Virus record (IMG/VR): IMGVR_UViG_3300048583_000181
Location: 1-39,861 of that record
DNA: 39,861 nt
DNA from: a virus
Direction: 5' to 3' (one strand)
In this document: positions 4,819 to 20,356 of the stretch, one piece after another
Layout: each line of letters opens with the position of its first letter
Numbering within the stretch: the first letter of the stretch is position 1
Notes under the pieces: model-generated
The model's input: only the letters and a program-made list of their open reading frames with translations
Databases searched by the model: none
Told to the model about the DNA's origin: nothing
Program-made: the position numbers and the translations under genes

Positions 4819-5012
4819 AACAATCGCCAAAACAACGGGCGATAAGTCGGAGCGGGGGTTTGACGTTGCGGTTTTGGCGCAACGTCAAAATTGATCGTTG
4901 GAAACTGGCGCAACGCCCGATCGCCGAAGTTTTCGGCCCTGATGATCGGCAATAATTCGGCATGAGTTAACCGGGGGCGTTGGCGCATTAAATTATTCAA
5001 AACACTAGGCAT
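4806..5012 (-). CDS. Hypothetical protein (68 aa); coding status uncertain
   Basis: Has the same TAGGGAGTCCGC leader and MPS start as 4467..4727. However, the body contains a perfect 12-bp palindrome (4859..4889) and repeated TGGCGCAAC words. Confidence 0.4.
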   Translation of the reverse strand: MPSVLNNLMRQRPRLTHAELLPIIRAENFGDRALRQFPTINFDVAPKPQRQTPAPTYRPLFWRLFWRD

Positions 5013-5189: not shown

Positions 5190-5750
5190 TCAACCGATAC
5201 CCAGTGCCGACAACATTGCGCCCGTATCGACCGACGAAGTTTTCGGCGCGGGGCGCAATTCGGCCATAATCGCGGCGATGGCCGGCTCCCGGCGCAATGC
5301 CAACTGTTCCGCGCGAGTTTTCGCGTCATAAATCGCGCGAGTTTTCGCGGCCATATCATCGGGGATCGGCAGCTTCTGGGCGGTAGCGGCATTGACCAGA
5401 AACTGGTGAAACGCCCGATAGATAATGCCCGAAACAGGAGCCGAGCCATCGCCCGACGACCGCTGCGACCAGTCACCCGCAATCAATGCGTCGGCAACGT
5501 CCTGCATCGCGGCCATTTTGTCAGCGGGGGCGGCGGGCAGCCCGTCGTCGTTCAGCGACATTGCCGCCGCGTCGGCAATTTTCTGTTTCAGCCCATGCAT
5601 CATTGCCGCCGCGCGGATATCCGCCGACAATGCCGCCGCGTTGACGGTGAATGAACCAGCGCCCGTGACGTTAAATGTCATAACCTCCCCGTCAATGACG
5701 GTGGTAATGACGCGGGCGCGTTTCGTTTCGACTTTCGTTTCTTTTGCCAT
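5190..5750 (-). CDS. Hypothetical protein (186 aa); paralog of 9163..9771
   Basis: Blocks shared with 9163..9771: HGxxQKxxD, an (A/I)AG(E/D)WS block, and the C-terminal SVDTxxxLxxLGxG. GTAGGGAGTC lies upstream of the ATG. Confidence 0.8.
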   Translation of the reverse strand: MAKETKVETKRARVITTVIDGEVMTFNVTGAGSFTVNAAALSADIRAAAMMHGLKQKIADAAAMSLNDDGLPAAPADKMAAMQDVADALIAGDWSQRSSGDGSAPVSGIIYRAFHQFLVNAATAQKLPIPDDMAAKTRAIYDAKTRAEQLALRREPAIAAIMAELRPAPKTSSVDTGAMLSALGIG

Positions 5751-6034
5751 GATAGTGACTCCCTACATATCGCCCCATTAGTGGCCGGGATTGGCGGGGG
5801 CGATGGCCCCTAGTGTCATGGCCAGCCGATAGTGTCAATATACCCCCGGCAATATATTTTCATATACCCTAGGCCAATCGCCCGCCCGCCCCCCGTGTGA
5901 CCGATGACGGCGACTGGGCATTGGGGGCGGCATGGCATATTGACAACGCGTGACACGCGCACGCGCGCGTGTAGCAAAAACCGTGCCAACCGACGACCGG
6001 CTGACGATTGATTGCCGATTGTTAATGTCGATAT

Positions 6035-6050
6035 CCGGTTGCACTAATCC
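6035..6050. repeat. Third, inverted copy of the GGATTAGTGCAAC core; it overlaps the early promoter -35 box
   Basis: The reverse complement of CCGGTTGCACTAATCC is GGATTAGTGCAACCGG, which matches the core of the 3946 and 4014 repeats. Confidence 0.85.
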
Positions 6051-6067
6051 TAAATGGCCGATAGGAT
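6039..6067 (+). promoter_or_regulatory. Predicted early promoter: TTGCAC-N17-TAGGAT
   Basis: TTGCAC at 6039..6044, spacer exactly 17 nt, TAGGAT at 6062..6067. It lies about 45 nt upstream of the first plus-strand ORF, in the divergent intergenic region. Confidence 0.5.
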
Positions 6068-6114
6068 GGCCAATCGCCGGGGATGATCGCGGCGATAATT
6101 TGGGGACTTAACCG

Positions 6115-6294
6115 ATGAAAATCTATAAGTGGTATTTCGGGGCTTCTGAAGGCATTTGCCGATCAACCGAAGCCGCAATGAAAGAAAAATCAATGCAATA
6201 CGCCCGCTCCTGCCTGGCAAAAGGTATCCCACTTTCGGAAATTAAGGCTTGTTATACCCCCGTGCAAATGCGCCAACCTCCAGTATCGATGTAA
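6115..6294 (+). CDS. Hypothetical early protein (59 aa); its TAA stop abuts hammerhead 1
   Basis: Manual translation: MKIYKWYFGASEGICRSTEAAMKEKSMQYARSCLAKGIPLSEIKACYTPVQMRQPPVSM. GGGGA lies 9 nt upstream. It falls below the 60-aa cutoff of the ORF track. Confidence 0.55.
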   Translation: MKIYKWYFGASEGICRSTEAAMKEKSMQYARSCLAKGIPLSEIKACYTPVQMRQPPVSM

Positions 6295-6346
6295 GGACGA
6301 AACCCGCTTCAGCGGGTCATCCGGTAACGCCGGGTCTGATGAGTCC
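6295..6346 (+). ncRNA. Type II hammerhead self-cleaving ribozyme (HHR1)
   Basis: Stem II is open: GGAC 6295..6298 pairs with GUCC 6343..6346. GAAA core at 6299..6302. Stem III: CCGC/GCGG with loop UUCA, plus the C6303-G6316 and A6302-U6317 pairs. The cleavage triplet is GUC, ending at 6318. Stem I is 6 bp (6319..6324 with 6330..6335) with loop UAACG. CUGAUGA at 6336..6342. A G10.1-C11.1 pair is present. Confidence 0.9.
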
Positions 6347-6692
6347 ATCAGTTACTGCTATTAGGGAGCCGATCACGCCAACCCCGCACAACCAGCGTAA
6401 AACCCCCGGCACACAGGGGGTAAAACTCAACGCCGATGAAGAAGATGCTATTCGCCTAATCTGCCCAGCGGTCTATCGTCAATTTGTCTTATACGACTCA
6501 CCATCAAAAGTCGCCCTGCAGTCAAAAGCGCTCGAAATAACCGAAGCCCGGCTGGTCGAATTGATCGAACGGCACAAGGAAAAACAAGCCCGCCACACGA
6601 CCCAGCTCTACGGCCCCAATCACCCGCAGTCTTGGGAAAACCTCTATTCCCCCGCAATCAAAATGCTGCGGGAAATGGGGATTGCGAAGTAA
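6339..6692 (+). CDS. Hypothetical early protein; start codon uncertain
   Basis: The frame is open from 6249, but the 5' part overlaps HHR1. The first in-frame ATG (6339) is the AUG of the CUGAUGA core. A TAGGGAG word (6362..6368) is followed by in-frame ATC and ACG but no ATG. The TAA stop (6690..6692) abuts HHR2. Confidence 0.55.
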   Translation: MSPSVTAIREPITPTPHNQRKTPGTQGVKLNADEEDAIRLICPAVYRQFVLYDSPSKVALQSKALEITEARLVELIERHKEKQARHTTQLYGPNHPQSWENLYSPAIKMLREMGIAK

Positions 6693-6750
6693 GGACGAAA
6701 CGGGCAGCGGTATTGCCCGTCCAGTGGTATTTTCCACTGCTGATGAGTCC
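6693..6750 (+). ncRNA. Type II hammerhead self-cleaving ribozyme (HHR2)
   Basis: GGAC 6693..6696 pairs with GUCC 6747..6750. GAAAC at 6697..6701. Stem III: GGGCA/UGCCC with loop GCGGUAU. The GUC triplet ends at 6721. Stem I: CAGUGG/CCACUG with loop UAUUUU. CUGAUGA at 6740..6746. Confidence 0.92.
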
Positions 6751-6770
6751 AAACACAGGGAGATAGCACA

Positions 6771-6968
6771 ATGACCACCTTTCGCGCAGTTCTGATAAAG
6801 ACAGAAAACAATACGGGCAAGACAACCGGCGAAGTCGTCACGTCGGTTCTCAAGACCGTCGGGCCATGGCAACAGACTTTGATCGGCGCGATCGAAGCTT
6901 GCAAGGCAACGTGGAAACGGGATTTTCCGCAGACCAACTACCGCGAAGCCCAGGATTTTTTCTGGTAG
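6771..6968 (+). CDS. Hypothetical early protein (65 aa)
   Basis: ORF track entry. GGGAG lies 9 nt upstream of the ATG. The ORF sits between HHR2 and HHR3. Confidence 0.7.
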   Translation: MTTFRAVLIKTENNTGKTTGEVVTSVLKTVGPWQQTLIGAIEACKATWKRDFPQTNYREAQDFFW

Positions 6969-7007
6969 TCCAGCGATGATCTTACCCAAAGCCACCACGT
7001 TCAATAA

Positions 7008-7059
7008 AAGCGAAACCGGCGTCAGCCGGTCGGTCGGTATCGCCGGCCCTGATGAGCTT
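7008..7059 (+). ncRNA. Type II hammerhead self-cleaving ribozyme (HHR3)
   Basis: AAGC 7008..7011 pairs with GCUU 7056..7059. GAAAC at 7012..7016. Stem III: CGGC/GCCG with loop GUCA. The GUC triplet ends at 7031. Stem I is 6 bp (7032..7037 with 7043..7048, including one G-U pair) with loop UAUCG. CUGAUGA at 7049..7055. Confidence 0.88.
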
Positions 7060-7090
7060 AATCGTCGGTTTTCCACCAGGAGTCAATTTA

Positions 7091-7318
7091 ATGGCTAAGA
7101 ATATCGCAAAGTCAAAAGGCAACACCGCCCGTCGCTCGGCGCAACGCAATAAAGGGCTGCCCGGCGGAGTCGTCAATCTTCACGGGAAGAACACCTTGCC
7201 CAGCCTCGAAAAGATGCTGGCCAATTCCACTTCTCTCTCCGACCTCGTTCGCAAACTTCGCCTTGCCCGGCGTTGGAAAGTCTTGCCAAAAGCAGCAACC
7301 GGGCGGGGGATGGAATAA
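7091..7318 (+). CDS. Hypothetical small basic protein (75 aa)
   Basis: I moved the start to the ATG at 7091 (MAKNIAKSKGNTARR), with AGGAG 7 nt upstream. The track start at 7052 is the AUG inside the HHR3 core. Confidence 0.75.
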   Translation: MAKNIAKSKGNTARRSAQRNKGLPGGVVNLHGKNTLPSLEKMLANSTSLSDLVRKLRLARRWKVLPKAATGRGME

Positions 7319-7521
7319 TGAAGACTTATTGGGGCGCCCGTATCCGCCGGGCTGATTCCAAATTCATTCGCCTTCTCCGCAGCCTGCCCGTCACATATCG
7401 CTATGTCTGGGCAGTTCGCATTGGCAATGACTGGACAACCTACTGCGTCATCGCCCGCCACAATCCATACTCCGCGCGCGGAAAGGCCCGGCAGTATGAT
7501 CTGACAAATCCGCTTGTTTGA
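7318..7521 (+). CDS. Hypothetical protein (67 aa)
   Basis: TAATG stop/start overlap with the previous gene. Begins MKTYWGARIRR. Confidence 0.7.
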   Translation: MKTYWGARIRRADSKFIRLLRSLPVTYRYVWAVRIGNDWTTYCVIARHNPYSARGKARQYDLTNPLV

Positions 7522-7537
7522 TTGGAAGGAAATCACT

Positions 7538-7774
7538 ATGCCCCGTCCTCTCTACCGCATCGCCGCTGACATTCGCGCAGACTGGCAACCGCTCTCCCCG
7601 CACGCCAGACCCTACATCATGGCGATGGGGGAGCTCGTCAACATCCACGACAGTTATGGCGCTGATTCGGCCAAATCAATCGTCCTCTACTTCCTCTCCA
7701 ACGCCGGGACATGGAAAGGGCAAACCGCCCGGACAATCAAGGCGGAATTGAAATCTCTTGCAGGAGTTCGTTAA
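7538..7774 (+). CDS. Hypothetical protein (78 aa)
   Basis: ATG at 7538 preceded by GGAAGGAAA. Begins MPRPLYRIAADIRADW. Confidence 0.75.
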   Translation: MPRPLYRIAADIRADWQPLSPHARPYIMAMGELVNIHDSYGADSAKSIVLYFLSNAGTWKGQTARTIKAELKSLAGVR

Positions 7775-8098
7775 ATGACGGAAATCGTAATCAACAGCTG
7801 CTATGGCGGCTTCGGGCTTTCCGATACAGCAATTCTCGAAATGCGAAAACTCGCCGGACATTGGGGGATTACCCCGTCCCTCTCCGTCGAAGCGCGTTGG
7901 GAAAATTATTTCCCCTCCCGCGATGTCAGTCGTGACTCGCCGATCCTTATTGCCGCCGTCAAAGCAATCGGCGGGAAGAAAGCATCTGGCCCCGGCGCCA
8001 GTCTCAAAATCGTCACCATCCCTGACGATGTGAAGTGGCAGATCGAAGATTATGATGGACTGGAATGGGTGGCAGAAGCCCATCGGATTTGGGGTTAA
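7775..8098 (+). CDS. Hypothetical protein (107 aa)
   Basis: ORF track entry, tightly packed after the previous stop. Confidence 0.8.
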   Translation: MTEIVINSCYGGFGLSDTAILEMRKLAGHWGITPSLSVEARWENYFPSRDVSRDSPILIAAVKAIGGKKASGPGASLKIVTIPDDVKWQIEDYDGLEWVAEAHRIWG

Positions 8099-8102
8099 TA
8101 AA

Positions 8103-8477
8103 ATGTCCAAGCCCAACACCCGCGAGGACGCAATCTTCCTCTCCCTCTGGCGGCGCGCGGGGCTTGACAACCCCCCGCCACCTATCACCCTCTCCAGCCA
8201 TTCCCTGGCAATCTCCGTCCGGGCGAAACTTTTCCGCGTCATCAAGCCCTACCGCGCTGGTCGGCTCGAGGACGCCGAATTGCTGATGGCCGCGGAAAAC
8301 TGGACAGTCGCCGTCAACGACTGCACAATCACCTTCGTCCGCAAAGTCACGCAAGCTGCAGCGGAAGAAATTGCCGCTCTGCTCGGCCTGACCGAAGCCG
8401 ATATTATGTCGCCGGAAGAAAAAGCTTCCGCCGATCGAATGGCGGCGATGCTCAGCAATCTTAAAGACAAGGAATAA
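8103..8477 (+). CDS. Hypothetical protein (124 aa)
   Basis: Internal ATG at 8103 (MSKPNTRED), directly after the upstream stop. Confidence 0.75.
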   Translation: MSKPNTREDAIFLSLWRRAGLDNPPPPITLSSHSLAISVRAKLFRVIKPYRAGRLEDAELLMAAENWTVAVNDCTITFVRKVTQAAAEEIAALLGLTEADIMSPEEKASADRMAAMLSNLKDKE

Positions 8478-9162: not shown

Positions 9163-9771
9163 ATGGCAACCGAAACTGTCCGAACCCCCATCACCATGAC
9201 TGATGGCCGGGTCGTTGAATTTACCACCAAGCAAAAGCTCGTCAAGACCACTTCGATCGTCGATGGCGTCGTCAGCGTCCAGCTCGATTTCCGCAACGGC
9301 GCGACCCGCTCCTTCACCATCCCCGAAGCCATGATCCTGCAGTTCGCTGGTCACGGTGCCGAGCAGAAGCTCGGCGATGTCACCGCCGGTGAAGATACCG
9401 TCGAGGATGGCGTGGAAGCCCTCGATGATCTGATTGCCCGTCTCAACGCTGGCGAATGGTCGGTCAAGCGTCAGGCCGGTGCCTTCGCCGGTCAGTCCGT
9501 CCTCATCCAGGCCCTCTGCGAAGCGTCGGGCAAGCCGGTGGACGAAATCCGCGCTTACCTGTCCACCAAGACGGCGGCGGAAAAGACTGCCCTGCGCAAG
9601 ACCAATGCCCTCGCGCCGATCATCGCCCGCATCGAAGCGGCGAAGCCGAAGAAGGTTTCCACCGTCGATACCGCCTCGCTGCTTGCTGATCTCGGCGTCG
9701 GCCCGGCAGTCAATCCGGACGAGGACACTTCGGATCCGACGGCTGCCGTCACCGGCAAGCGCGGCAAGTAA
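9163..9771 (+). CDS. Hypothetical protein (202 aa); paralog of 5190..5750. Looks like a monocistronic unit.
   Basis: GGAGA RBS. Flanked by a terminator and promoter upstream and a terminator downstream. Shares motif blocks with 5190..5750. Confidence 0.85.
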   Translation: MATETVRTPITMTDGRVVEFTTKQKLVKTTSIVDGVVSVQLDFRNGATRSFTIPEAMILQFAGHGAEQKLGDVTAGEDTVEDGVEALDDLIARLNAGEWSVKRQAGAFAGQSVLIQALCEASGKPVDEIRAYLSTKTAAEKTALRKTNALAPIIARIEAAKPKKVSTVDTASLLADLGVGPAVNPDEDTSDPTAAVTGKRGK

Positions 9772-17946: not shown

Positions 17947-19638
17947 ATGATTATGCCAGACGGCCTGCCCACCAGCCGTATCATGATCGTGCAAGAGTGC
18001 CCTGGAGAGCCAGAACACCAAATCGGTCGAGCTCTTCAGGGCCTCAATGGCATTGAATTTAACAAAATGCTTACCGAAGCTGGTATCATGCGGTCGGAGT
18101 GCTTTGCCACTTCTGTCATCCGCACGCGCATCTCAATGAACGATATCAACACCCAAATCTGCCACCGCAAGAAAGACGCCACCGATCGCCACTCCCCCTA
18201 TTTCGACAAGCTCGTAACTCAGGAGTTTCAAGATGGAGCATCCCTCCTCTTCAAAGAAATTGCTCTCGTCAAACCCGACGTTATTATTGCTTTGGGAAAT
18301 GGGGCATTGTTTGCGCTCACTGGAAAATGGGGAATTAAGCAGTGGCGAGGTAGCCAGCTTCCTTTCTCGACTGGAGACGGCGACAGCGCAGTATCGTGCA
18401 CTGTTATTCCCACCTACGACCCCGGCTGGATCAAGCGAATGTGGAGTGAGCGGTCAATCGCAGTGCAAGACCTCCGACGGGCAAAAGGGGTTAGGGACAC
18501 TGGATTTCATCAACCGCTGGATGGCGGACAGAGTAGAAGCCGAAAAGACCCCATTGTTGGGCGGGGATATAATTTCATTCTCCGGCCAAGCGTCGAAACC
18601 GTATTGTCTTGTCTGCAAGCGCTCCAACGAACTGTCGAGCTGTCTCCGACGCGATTGTCAGTGGATATTGAAACCCGCGCAGGGCACACCGCTTGCATTG
18701 GAATAGCTTGGTCGAAATCCGATGCAATCTGTATTCCGCTGATGTGTGTCGAGAGCCCGGCGGGCTATTGGCTGGAAGAAGAAGAAACCGCGATCAGCTT
18801 TGCGCTGTATAAACTCCTCACCCACCCAAATGCCGAAGTTATCGGACAGAATTTCGCCTACGATGCGCAGTATTTCTACCGCCATCTTCACTTCATCCCC
18901 AACCTCAAACGCTGCACGATGATCGCTCAGCATACGATGTTCTCCAACCTTCCTAAAGGTCTAGATTACCTGTCGAGCATGTATTGTGACGAGCACATTT
19001 ACTGGAAAGACGAGTCCAAAAACTGGGATCCAAAAGTCGGGGAAGATCAGCTTTGGGCGTATAACTGCAAAGACTGCGTGATCACTTACGAAGTCGATGA
19101 GAAACAGCAAAAGTCCATCGACGAACTTGGCTTGCGGAAAGTCCACGATTTCCAACAAGCTCTTTGGTGGCCAGTTCTTGAGACCATGAACCGCGGTATT
19201 CGGGTTGAGCAAGCTGGAAAAGCTCGCCTCGCCCAGGAGCTATTTGCTGCCATTCAAGAACGCGAAGCCTGGATTATCCGTGTCATCGGACGCCCACTGA
19301 ACCCAAAATCGCCAAAGCAAATGGCAGATTTTTTCTACCGGGAAATGGCGCAGCGACCAGTTATCAACCGCGCGACGGGCAGCCCAACTTGCAACGATGC
19401 TGCGCTGACAAAGATCGGGGAGCGGGAGCCGCTATTACTCCCTTTGATCAACGTCATATCCGAATTGCGAAGCCTCGGTGTTTTCCTGTCAACCTTTGTC
19501 CAAGCCCCACTCGACATCGACAGCCGGATGCGGTGCTCCTTCAACATCGCCGGGACAGTCACCTACCGCTTTTCGTCATCCAGCAACGCTTTTGACTCCG
19601 GCATGAATTTGCAGAATATCCCGAAGGGAGACGATTGA
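17947..19638 (+). CDS. DNA polymerase A family, part I: UDG-like N-terminal domain, 3'-5' exonuclease, and the N-terminal part of the polymerase
   Basis: UDG family-4-like QECPGEPE. Exo I is VDIETRA, Exo II is GQNFAYDAQY, Exo III is YNCKDCV. The ORF ends ...MNLQNIPKGDD*, immediately before where motif A is expected. Confidence 0.85.
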   Translation: MIMPDGLPTSRIMIVQECPGEPEHQIGRALQGLNGIEFNKMLTEAGIMRSECFATSVIRTRISMNDINTQICHRKKDATDRHSPYFDKLVTQEFQDGASLLFKEIALVKPDVIIALGNGALFALTGKWGIKQWRGSQLPFSTGDGDSAVSCTVIPTYDPGWIKRMWSERSIAVQDLRRAKGVRDTGFHQPLDGGQSRSRKDPIVGRGYNFILRPSVETVLSCLQALQRTVELSPTRLSVDIETRAGHTACIGIAWSKSDAICIPLMCVESPAGYWLEEEETAISFALYKLLTHPNAEVIGQNFAYDAQYFYRHLHFIPNLKRCTMIAQHTMFSNLPKGLDYLSSMYCDEHIYWKDESKNWDPKVGEDQLWAYNCKDCVITYEVDEKQQKSIDELGLRKVHDFQQALWWPVLETMNRGIRVEQAGKARLAQELFAAIQEREAWIIRVIGRPLNPKSPKQMADFFYREMAQRPVINRATGSPTCNDAALTKIGEREPLLLPLINVISELRSLGVFLSTFVQAPLDIDSRMRCSFNIAGTVTYRFSSSSNAFDSGMNLQNIPKGDD

Positions 19639-19639
19639 A

Positions 19640-20356
19640 ATGGATATGCCCAACATTCGCAAGCTATTCATTCCCGACCCCGGCTATTCTTTCTTCGACA
19701 TCGACCTTGACTCCGCCGATCTCCGTATCGTCGTCTGGGAGTCCGATTGCAAAGAAATGAAGGCCATGTTTGCAGAAGGGAAAAAGCCGTATGTCGAAGT
19801 CGCCAAAGAATACTACCGAGACCCCTCCATCGACAAGCATCACCCTTCCTATAAAATCTTTAAATCCCTCTGCCACGGAACTAACTACCTCGGCAAAGCC
19901 CGCGGCATCGCCCCGCGAGTTGGCCTTGTTGTCGCTGATGTCGAGCGTATCCAAAACTGGTATTTTGGTAAGTTCCCAGAAATCAAGCAATGGCAAGACA
20001 ATATCATCTCGTCCATCAATCGGCAAAAGTTTATCACAAACGTATTCGGTTATCGCATCAATGCTTTCGACCGGATTGACGACAATCTATATCGAGCCTT
20101 CGTCGCCTGGGTGCCGCAGTCCACGGTCGCTTGTCTTATCAACCGAGGTTATTACAACATCTATAAAAATCTCCGCGAAGTGCAGATCCTGCTCCAAGTC
20201 CATGACTCTCTGGCTGGGCAGTATGAAACGCATCTCGGAGATTGGGCCACTCGGAGAATTGTTGAAGAATGCTCGGTGCCGCTGCCATATGCCGAACCGC
20301 TGATTATTCCGGTCGGCATTTCCAGTAGTAATCTTAGTTGGGGAGATTGCAGGTGA
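19640..20356 (+). CDS. DNA polymerase A family, part II (motifs A, B and C)
   Basis: Begins MDMPNIRKLFIP... Motif A is FFDIDLDSADLRIV, motif B-like is YKIFKSLCHGTNYLG, and motif C is LLQVHDSL. It starts 1 nt after the part I stop, in a different frame. Confidence 0.85.
   Translation: MDMPNIRKLFIPDPGYSFFDIDLDSADLRIVVWESDCKEMKAMFAEGKKPYVEVAKEYYRDPSIDKHHPSYKIFKSLCHGTNYLGKARGIAPRVGLVVADVERIQNWYFGKFPEIKQWQDNIISSINRQKFITNVFGYRINAFDRIDDNLYRAFVAWVPQSTVACLINRGYYNIYKNLREVQILLQVHDSLAGQYETHLGDWATRRIVEECSVPLPYAEPLIIPVGISSSNLSWGDCR

Follow-up and report, generated by a model that had tools for sequence, protein, structure and literature searches.

Positions 7008-7059 of the window, by which we mean the whole 39,861-nt stretch of viral DNA that was analysed, very probably form a genuine type II hammerhead ribozyme (HHR3), the third of three in the 5'-proximal early operon of a phage. 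On sequence grounds the motif is a putative self-cleaving element located upstream of a small gene (gene 4), and the AUG at 7052 that lies within its catalytic core would not be a start codon. The window represents the genome, about 40 kb long, of a tailed phage; its products include a large terminase, a UDG-PolA fusion, a ParB-methylase, a DUF3987 primase-like protein and a tail fibre with an S74 chaperone domain. Coding is rightward (+) from 6115 to about 22000, and one hammerhead stands in each of the first three gaps between the small genes of this rightward early operon, so that together they flank genes 2 and 3 and precede gene 4. The features referred to below are as follows.

6295-6346 (+): HHR1, sister type II hammerhead, directly after the TAA at 6292-6294; predicted cut after C6318
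6693-6750 (+): HHR2, sister type II hammerhead, directly after the TAA at 6690-6692; predicted cut after C6721
6771-6968 (+): gene 3, 65 aa, upstream of HHR3; Shine-Dalgarno GGGAG upstream of ATG 6771
7008-7059 (+): HHR3, complete type II hammerhead motif by sequence, descriptor, RF02276 (32.9 bits), model R2 (61.1 bits) and minimum free-energy fold
7008-7011 (+): stem II, 3' strand AAGC, pairing with GCUU 7056-7059
7011 and 7056: C7011-G7056, innermost stem II pair (the conserved 11.1-10.1 pair), invariant in 13/13 and in 60/60 family members
7012-7015 (+): core GAAA (G12, A13, A14 and A15.1); A7015 pairs with U7030
7016-7029 (+): stem III hairpin, CCGGC-GUCA-GCCGG
7030-7031 (+): U16.1 and C17; scissile bond C7031/G7032 predicted from the hammerhead consensus
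7032-7048 (+): stem I hairpin of 17 nt, GGUCGG-UAUCG-CCGGCC, from sequence and predicted fold
7049-7055 (+): core CUGAUGA, holding AUG 7052-7054
7056-7059 (+): stem II, 5' strand GCUU
7052-7318 (+): 88-aa ORF from the core AUG, as given in the ORF list
7078-7082 (+): Shine-Dalgarno AGGAG, 8 nt before ATG 7091
7091-7318 (+): gene 4, 75 aa, MAKNIAKSKGN...; five homologues begin at this Met

Sequence, fold and covariance models of HHR3

The segments listed above, read in order from AAGC to GCUU, reproduce the letters at 7008-7059 exactly as an earlier note on this DNA had laid the motif out. The topology is that of type II: loops close stems I and III, and stem II is an open helix of 4 bp. All bases of the catalytic core are present: the C3-A9 box is CUGAUGA (7049-7055), G12, A13 and A14 are supplied by GAA (7012-7014), and the A15.1-U16.1 pair, invariant in 60 of 60 family members, corresponds to A7015-U7030. 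The cleavage triplet GUC (7029-7031) fits N-U-H with C7031 unpaired between stems III and I, and the cut placed by the earlier note between 7031 and 7032 agrees with the hammerhead consensus alignment. Stem III comprises 6 bp with the A-U pair counted, stem I 6-7 bp and stem II 4 bp. The predicted minimum free-energy fold of an isolated 57-nt HHR3 RNA is the hammerhead three-way junction (-23.9 kcal/mol), and none of 200 shuffled sequences reached an equally good fold. HHR1 and HHR2 likewise carry every core base despite their diverged stems.

Rfam at its gathering thresholds reported nothing in the window. The best Rfam match in the window was that of HHR3 to RF02276 (Hammerhead_II), at 32.9 bits and an E-value of 0.0052, below the gathering score of 37; HHR1 also scored below it (29.2 bits). 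Relative to the RF02276 consensus, HHR3 has shorter loops on stems III and I, and the 3' tail of the model differs. RF02276 reported neither HHR2 (E up to 10) nor its orthologue in a related contig, L165 (E up to 1), both being perfect hammerheads, and thus appears to under-detect a compact subclass. Since HHR3 and HHR1 were scored below gathering and HHR2 was omitted, covariance models of our own were built. The pattern AGCGAAAC...CTGATGAGCT matched at least 119 stretches in IMG/VR viral contigs, so that compact hammerheads (4-bp stem II, 17-nt stem I) are abundant there even by one narrow pattern, and model R2 was derived from 81 hammerheads of those contigs with the sequences of the window excluded. 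R2 assigned 61.1 bits to HHR3 (E 4e-16), 58.8 to HHR1 and 54.4 to HHR2, the next best match in the window scoring 9.8 bits; HHR2 obtained 52.6 bits with another model in which it was not included.

The remark in the earlier note that stem II of HHR3 (AAGC/GCUU, as against GGAC/GUCC in HHR1 and HHR2) varies while still pairing was borne out in an alignment of five sequences, namely the three hammerheads of the window, the L165 orthologue of HHR2 and the hammerhead of a phage contig, L019, found through its homologue of the window gene at 7538-7774. Three of the four stem II pairs change on both sides in this alignment. Counting all helices, 10 of 16 pairs do so; 98.8% of cells are paired, a share that drops to 26-48% once the partners are slid. 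Among 60 distinct viral examples 99.3% of cells are paired. These figures are partly circular in that the descriptors or models by which family members were collected themselves require pairing. The clearest individual example is the passage from HHR2 to its L165 orthologue, in which stem I changes from CAGUGG/CCACUG to CAGCGG/CCGCUG by a compensatory U-A to C-G replacement. The orthologue also differs in the stem III loop, and the downstream gene is a different one in the two phages.

HHR3 belongs to the compact subclass by its 4-bp stem II and its 17-nt stem I with a 5-nt loop. A stem I of 17 nt is found in 53 of 73 family members, and the first base of its loop is U in 48 of those 53, as is U7038 in HHR3. 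Directly 5' of stem II an A is present in 56 of 59 compact-class members (A7007 in HHR3), and directly 3' of it in 42 of 59 (A7060). We speculate that the two flanking A residues and the loop U take part in a tertiary contact other than a pseudoknot. A pairing of 4 bp between loop I and the 3' tail can be drawn in HHR3 (AUCG 7039-7042 with CGGU 7066-7069); the loop I/3'-tail pseudoknot, seen in many type II hammerheads, does not stand out from chance in the family, the pairing potential over 76 members matching that of shuffled tails (3.34 vs 3.24). The L019 hammerhead (L019 4701-4764), which lies 237 nt upstream of the homologue mentioned above, can form such a pseudoknot of 5 bp (UAACC/GGUUA).

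When HHR3 is folded within a context of 151 nt, CUGAUGA 7049-7055 is predicted to pair with UCGUCGG 7062-7068 over 7 bp, replacing stem II. This modelled anti-core pairing might act against the active fold, or it might arise once the RNA has been cut, hiding AUG 7052 within it. The complementarity of the tail to CUGAUGA is striking in HHR3 and is not enriched across the family, and the anti-core hairpin was thus discarded as a family feature.

Three other readings of the motif itself were weighed. Chance resemblance to the hammerhead consensus has in its favour that the motif is short and that a fourth candidate at 4901-4945 (GAAAC...CTGATGA) is indeed a chance match, scoring 8 bits, without a stem II and antisense to minus-strand genes. 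Against this, a strict type II descriptor, demanding the core boxes and three paired stems, found exactly three matches in the window (6295-6346, 6693-6750 and 7008-7059), all on the plus strand and in three consecutive intergenic gaps, while of 300 dinucleotide-preserving shuffles made from the window, four yielded one match each and the remaining 296 none; 387 kb of unrelated phage loci yielded a single match. These shuffle counts, together with the R2 score of HHR3, effectively refute a chance origin. It is also barely credible that, on the minus strand, the stem III hairpin (7031..7014) and the T-rich tail TTCGCTTTTAT after it act as an intrinsic terminator of leftward transcription. A scan for terminator-like sites does list this hairpin with 7 pairs, 5 of them G-C; however, the T run is interrupted rather than a continuous U tract, right of the hairpin there is no credible end of a minus-strand gene (6115 to about 22000 being coded entirely on the plus strand), the same arrangement recurs at 6302-6317 inside HHR1, and the GAAA, GUC and CUGAUGA boxes and the stem I hairpin are left without an account. 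A catalytically dead or very slow relic, which would now be a pair of GC-rich intergenic hairpins acting as a stabiliser, RNase target or pause site, is in our assessment unlikely. It would agree with the score below the Rfam gathering value, with the finding of no significant tertiary pairing between stems I and II, with the competing hairpin predicted to sequester CUGAUGA in the longer context and with the lack of HHR3 in the closest relatives. Decay is expected to lose core bases first, whereas the core is intact in all three copies while the stems diverged; the subclass signature bases are conserved in HHR3, compact hammerheads are abundant in viral contigs as noted, and similar type II hammerheads cleave in vivo (PMC8782182). 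A genuine hammerhead therefore stays our preferred reading of 7008-7059.

Start codon and annotation of gene 4

As the earlier note had pointed out, the start of the 88-aa ORF at 7052 is the AUG inside CUGAUGA, and it lies in frame with ATG 7091, which the note had proposed as the real start on account of its AGGAG. An exhaustive HMMER search recovered five homologues of gene 4 (P0007-P0011, 37-71 bits) from other phages, and each has its first residue aligned with residue 14 of the query. They share the beginning MGK/MAK-x-[VI]AKSKGN, and each has its own Shine-Dalgarno site 6-9 nt upstream of the start. A word-indexed protein search, scans of viral contigs and a genome scan returned no homologues of gene 4, which also has no Pfam or PHROG family match. 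No hammerhead was found on the contigs of the five homologues, and a scan of metagenomes by pattern for HHR3 orthologues returned only unrelated hammerheads that share stem III. All 11 of these fit R2, and 9 of the 11 have a Shine-Dalgarno site and a start codon 11-26 nt downstream. A Shine-Dalgarno site, start codon and ORF lie no more than 80 nt downstream of 58 of the 73 family hammerheads, the median distance being about 26 nt; the start codon behind HHR3 lies at +31. The core AUG is in frame into the downstream ORF in 9 of 53 family members, approximately the frequency expected by chance.

Taken together, the starts of the homologues, the Shine-Dalgarno sites and the chance-level frequency of in-frame core AUGs place the real start at 7091, so that, judged by comparison of sequences, AUG 7052 shares the frame of gene 4 by coincidence, is no start codon and misleads gene callers, and the 13-residue extension MSLIVGFPPGVNL is an artefact. 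Genuine translation of the 88-aa ORF from AUG 7052, with the ribozyme doubling as the first codons of gene 4, is in comparison highly improbable. This reading can point to a frame that is open through to 7318, to an AUG that remains on the 3' cleavage product and to the automated call of 88 aa in the protein collection. The homologues, nonetheless, start exactly at residue 14 and have no common N-terminal extension; 7052 is preceded by the stem I strand CCGGCC and hence by no Shine-Dalgarno sequence, whereas AGGAG stands 8 nt before 7091; in-frame core AUGs occur at chance frequency; and AUG 7052 can be buried in the predicted 7-bp hairpin. As a cut at 7031/7032 would leave the AUG on the 3' product, the case against it is made by the homologues and the absent ribosome-binding site and not by cleavage.

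The expectation that automated annotation would hide the ribozyme within a coding sequence was confirmed for this contig, since the protein collection holds for it exactly the 88-aa product, from which it follows that the automated caller chose 7052. Pipeline behaviour was seen on this contig only, as no related genome carrying both HHR3 and gene 4 was found, and an exact-sequence look-up did not find the 88-aa product in the assembly index.

With respect to the surroundings of gene 4, its homologues at L168 1808-2134, L169 403-729 and L171 257-592 are located in early regions beside a gene of the Phage_N4_Gp1 family, and L168 also encodes Tad2-like and Sequestin/gp49 genes. This suggests that gene 4 belongs to a host-takeover or counter-defence neighbourhood.

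The early operon, its relatives and the distribution of hammerheads

HHR1 and HHR2 begin right after the TAA stops of genes 1 and 2, while HHR3 begins 40 nt after the TAG of gene 3 (6966-6968). Twelve in-frame sense codons follow this TAG up to a TAA at 7005-7007, which abuts stem II of HHR3 just as a TAA abuts HHR1 and HHR2. This layout may reflect a premature stop acquired recently, amber read-through or coincidence. The scan for terminator-like sites found none on the plus strand between the three hammerheads. The leftward unit, on the minus strand, has three strong terminator-like hairpins with long T runs (5064-5037, 4777-4752 and 4437-4414), each after a small gene, and therefore uses terminators where the rightward unit would use ribozymes. 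Two paralogous genes, at 5190-5750 (-) and 9163-9771 (+), bracket the early region in divergent orientation with 33% identity (E 9e-13), and neither has a family match.

Gene 2 presents a start codon question of its own. In relatives (L165 421-432; L166 191-203) the start of this gene reads TAGGGAGCCrATyATG, whereas the corresponding region of the window reads AGGGAGCCGATCACG, with ACG (6375-6377) in the place of the canonical ATG. The sole ATG remaining in frame is AUG 6339 in the CUGAUGA of HHR1, so that this core triplet might now serve as the gene 2 start, and the database call (P0002, 117 aa) begins there. Initiation may take place at the ACG or at the ribozyme AUG, gene 2 may have lost function in part or whole, or a sequencing error may have affected base 6376. 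Further along the genome, the family A DNA polymerase is split: an N-terminal ORF comprising UDG, exonuclease and polymerase parts ends at TGA 19636-19638, and the remainder of the polymerase domain is read from ATG 19640 in the +1 frame. In MW202489.1 one uninterrupted ORF encodes the homologue, and the break at 19636-19642 could reflect a gene that is truly split, a frameshift or an error of assembly.

By its PolA, the phage is closest to the uncultured phage MW202489.1 (56% amino acid identity) and next to Microcystis phage Mel-JY34, and neither of the two carries a hammerhead. A blastn search of 5800-8200 against GenBank phages gave no match. The nearest metagenomic relative, represented by the Logan contigs L165 and L167 with about 79% DNA identity in the flanks, has kept HHR2 (L165 749-808, corresponding to window 6691-6750) and lacks HHR1 and HHR3. 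Window 6777-7317, with gene 3, HHR3 and gene 4, has as its counterpart in this relative a single gene of 58 aa that is unrelated (L165 834-1066, L167 1-150). The left boundary of this mosaic swap falls at the first codons of gene 3, a short way past the conserved HHR2, and similarity resumes exactly at the ATG of gene 5 (7318). Relatives of gene 5 itself (7318-7521) were absent from viral and JGI metagenome contigs, and one Logan contig was found by way of the protein index.

HHR3 is dispensable for the phage lineage, as it is absent from the two closest sequenced phages and from the nearest metagenomic relative, and the patchy occurrence in relatives marks the hammerheads as sporadic and cassette-like rather than fixed parts of the lineage. 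That units of hammerhead plus gene may be exchangeable cassettes of the early operon, with the ribozyme sometimes drawn into coding, is a suggestion that we regard as doubtful. Tandem series are also seen on other contigs, with seven type II hammerheads on one strand at L099 7234-11137, five of the seven followed by the same ribosome-binding site AAGGGAGAGAGAA, and four on one strand at L161 4562-8755.

Proposed role and comparison with known systems

On the mechanism proposed here from the sequence, the 52-nt motif would fold while the polycistronic early RNA is being made and would cut after C7031. The two products would be held by the 4-bp stem II alone and would for that reason probably separate. 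The stem III hairpin and a 2',3'-cyclic phosphate would form the 3' end of the upstream product, the mRNA of gene 3. The downstream product, carrying gene 4 and the following genes, would have its 5'-OH on G7032 and the stem I hairpin at its front, with AGGAG 46 nt and ATG 7091 59 nt further on. Ends of these kinds, a cyclic phosphate with a hairpin or a 5'-OH with a hairpin, are expected to slow exonucleases and 5'-monophosphate-dependent RNases. With the operon cut upstream of gene 4, stability and translation could differ on either side, and the outcome would be early messages that are stable and translated separately. A translational role of phage hammerheads can be inferred from their recurrent spacing to a Shine-Dalgarno site and start codon.

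The hammerheads of the window provide one more clean case of tandem type II ribozymes predicted to split a phage early operon into mRNAs, and a cultivable relative would offer a compact system in which to ask whether ribozyme processing sets the stability and translation of single early genes. The AUG in the invariant CUGAUGA can generate false N-terminal extensions, of 13 residues in gene 4 and possibly 12 in gene 2. In view of such extensions and of under-detection by RF02276, compact ribozymes are probably hidden in called coding sequences of metagenomic phages. The value of HHR3 is mainly that of an annotation lesson and a tidy candidate system.

Engineered insulators such as RiboJ place a self-cleaving ribozyme some tens of nucleotides upstream of a start codon and resemble HHR3 in this position. 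Hammerheads in the 5'-UTRs of fungal and plant RNA viruses are needed for translation (bioRxiv 10.1101/2024.05.16.594327). In RiboJ and these viral elements, as would apply to HHR3, cleavage sets a downstream 5' end that is independent of the upstream sequence; they are, however, type I or III and eukaryotic or synthetic, whereas HHR3 is of type II and from a phage.

Closer parallels are found among bacterial and phage hammerheads. In Desulfovibrio vulgaris, three type II hammerheads cleave in vivo as detected by cyPhyRNA-seq (PMC8782182), an experimental precedent for the activity of such predicted motifs in cells. They are like HHR3 in type and in lying near phage-like genes, and they sit at separate loci in contrast to the tandem series of the window. 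RF02276 (clan CL00010; PMC3088659) shares with HHR3 the core, the permutation and the bacterial and phage habitat; HHR3 departs from it in its compactness and its score (32.9 vs 37 bits), and the loop I/3'-tail pseudoknot of the consensus is not detectable above chance in the subclass.

Perreault et al. (2011) described type II hammerheads clustered around single prophage genes, among them a triple arrangement in Agrobacterium tumefaciens that was active in vitro and in E. coli, and the proposed role of such clusters is to convert a long phage transcript into gene-length mRNAs (PMC3088659), a role still unproven according to a 2019 review (PMC6765202). As clustered prophage type II hammerheads have been known since then, HHR3 adds an example and not a new phenomenon. 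Like those clusters, the window has several hammerheads on a single strand, spaced over about 1 kb and separated by small genes that vary in identity. It differs from them in that the hammerheads lie in the early region of a free, podovirus-like metagenomic genome rather than an integrated prophage, that all three are of type II and that two of them abut the upstream stop codon.
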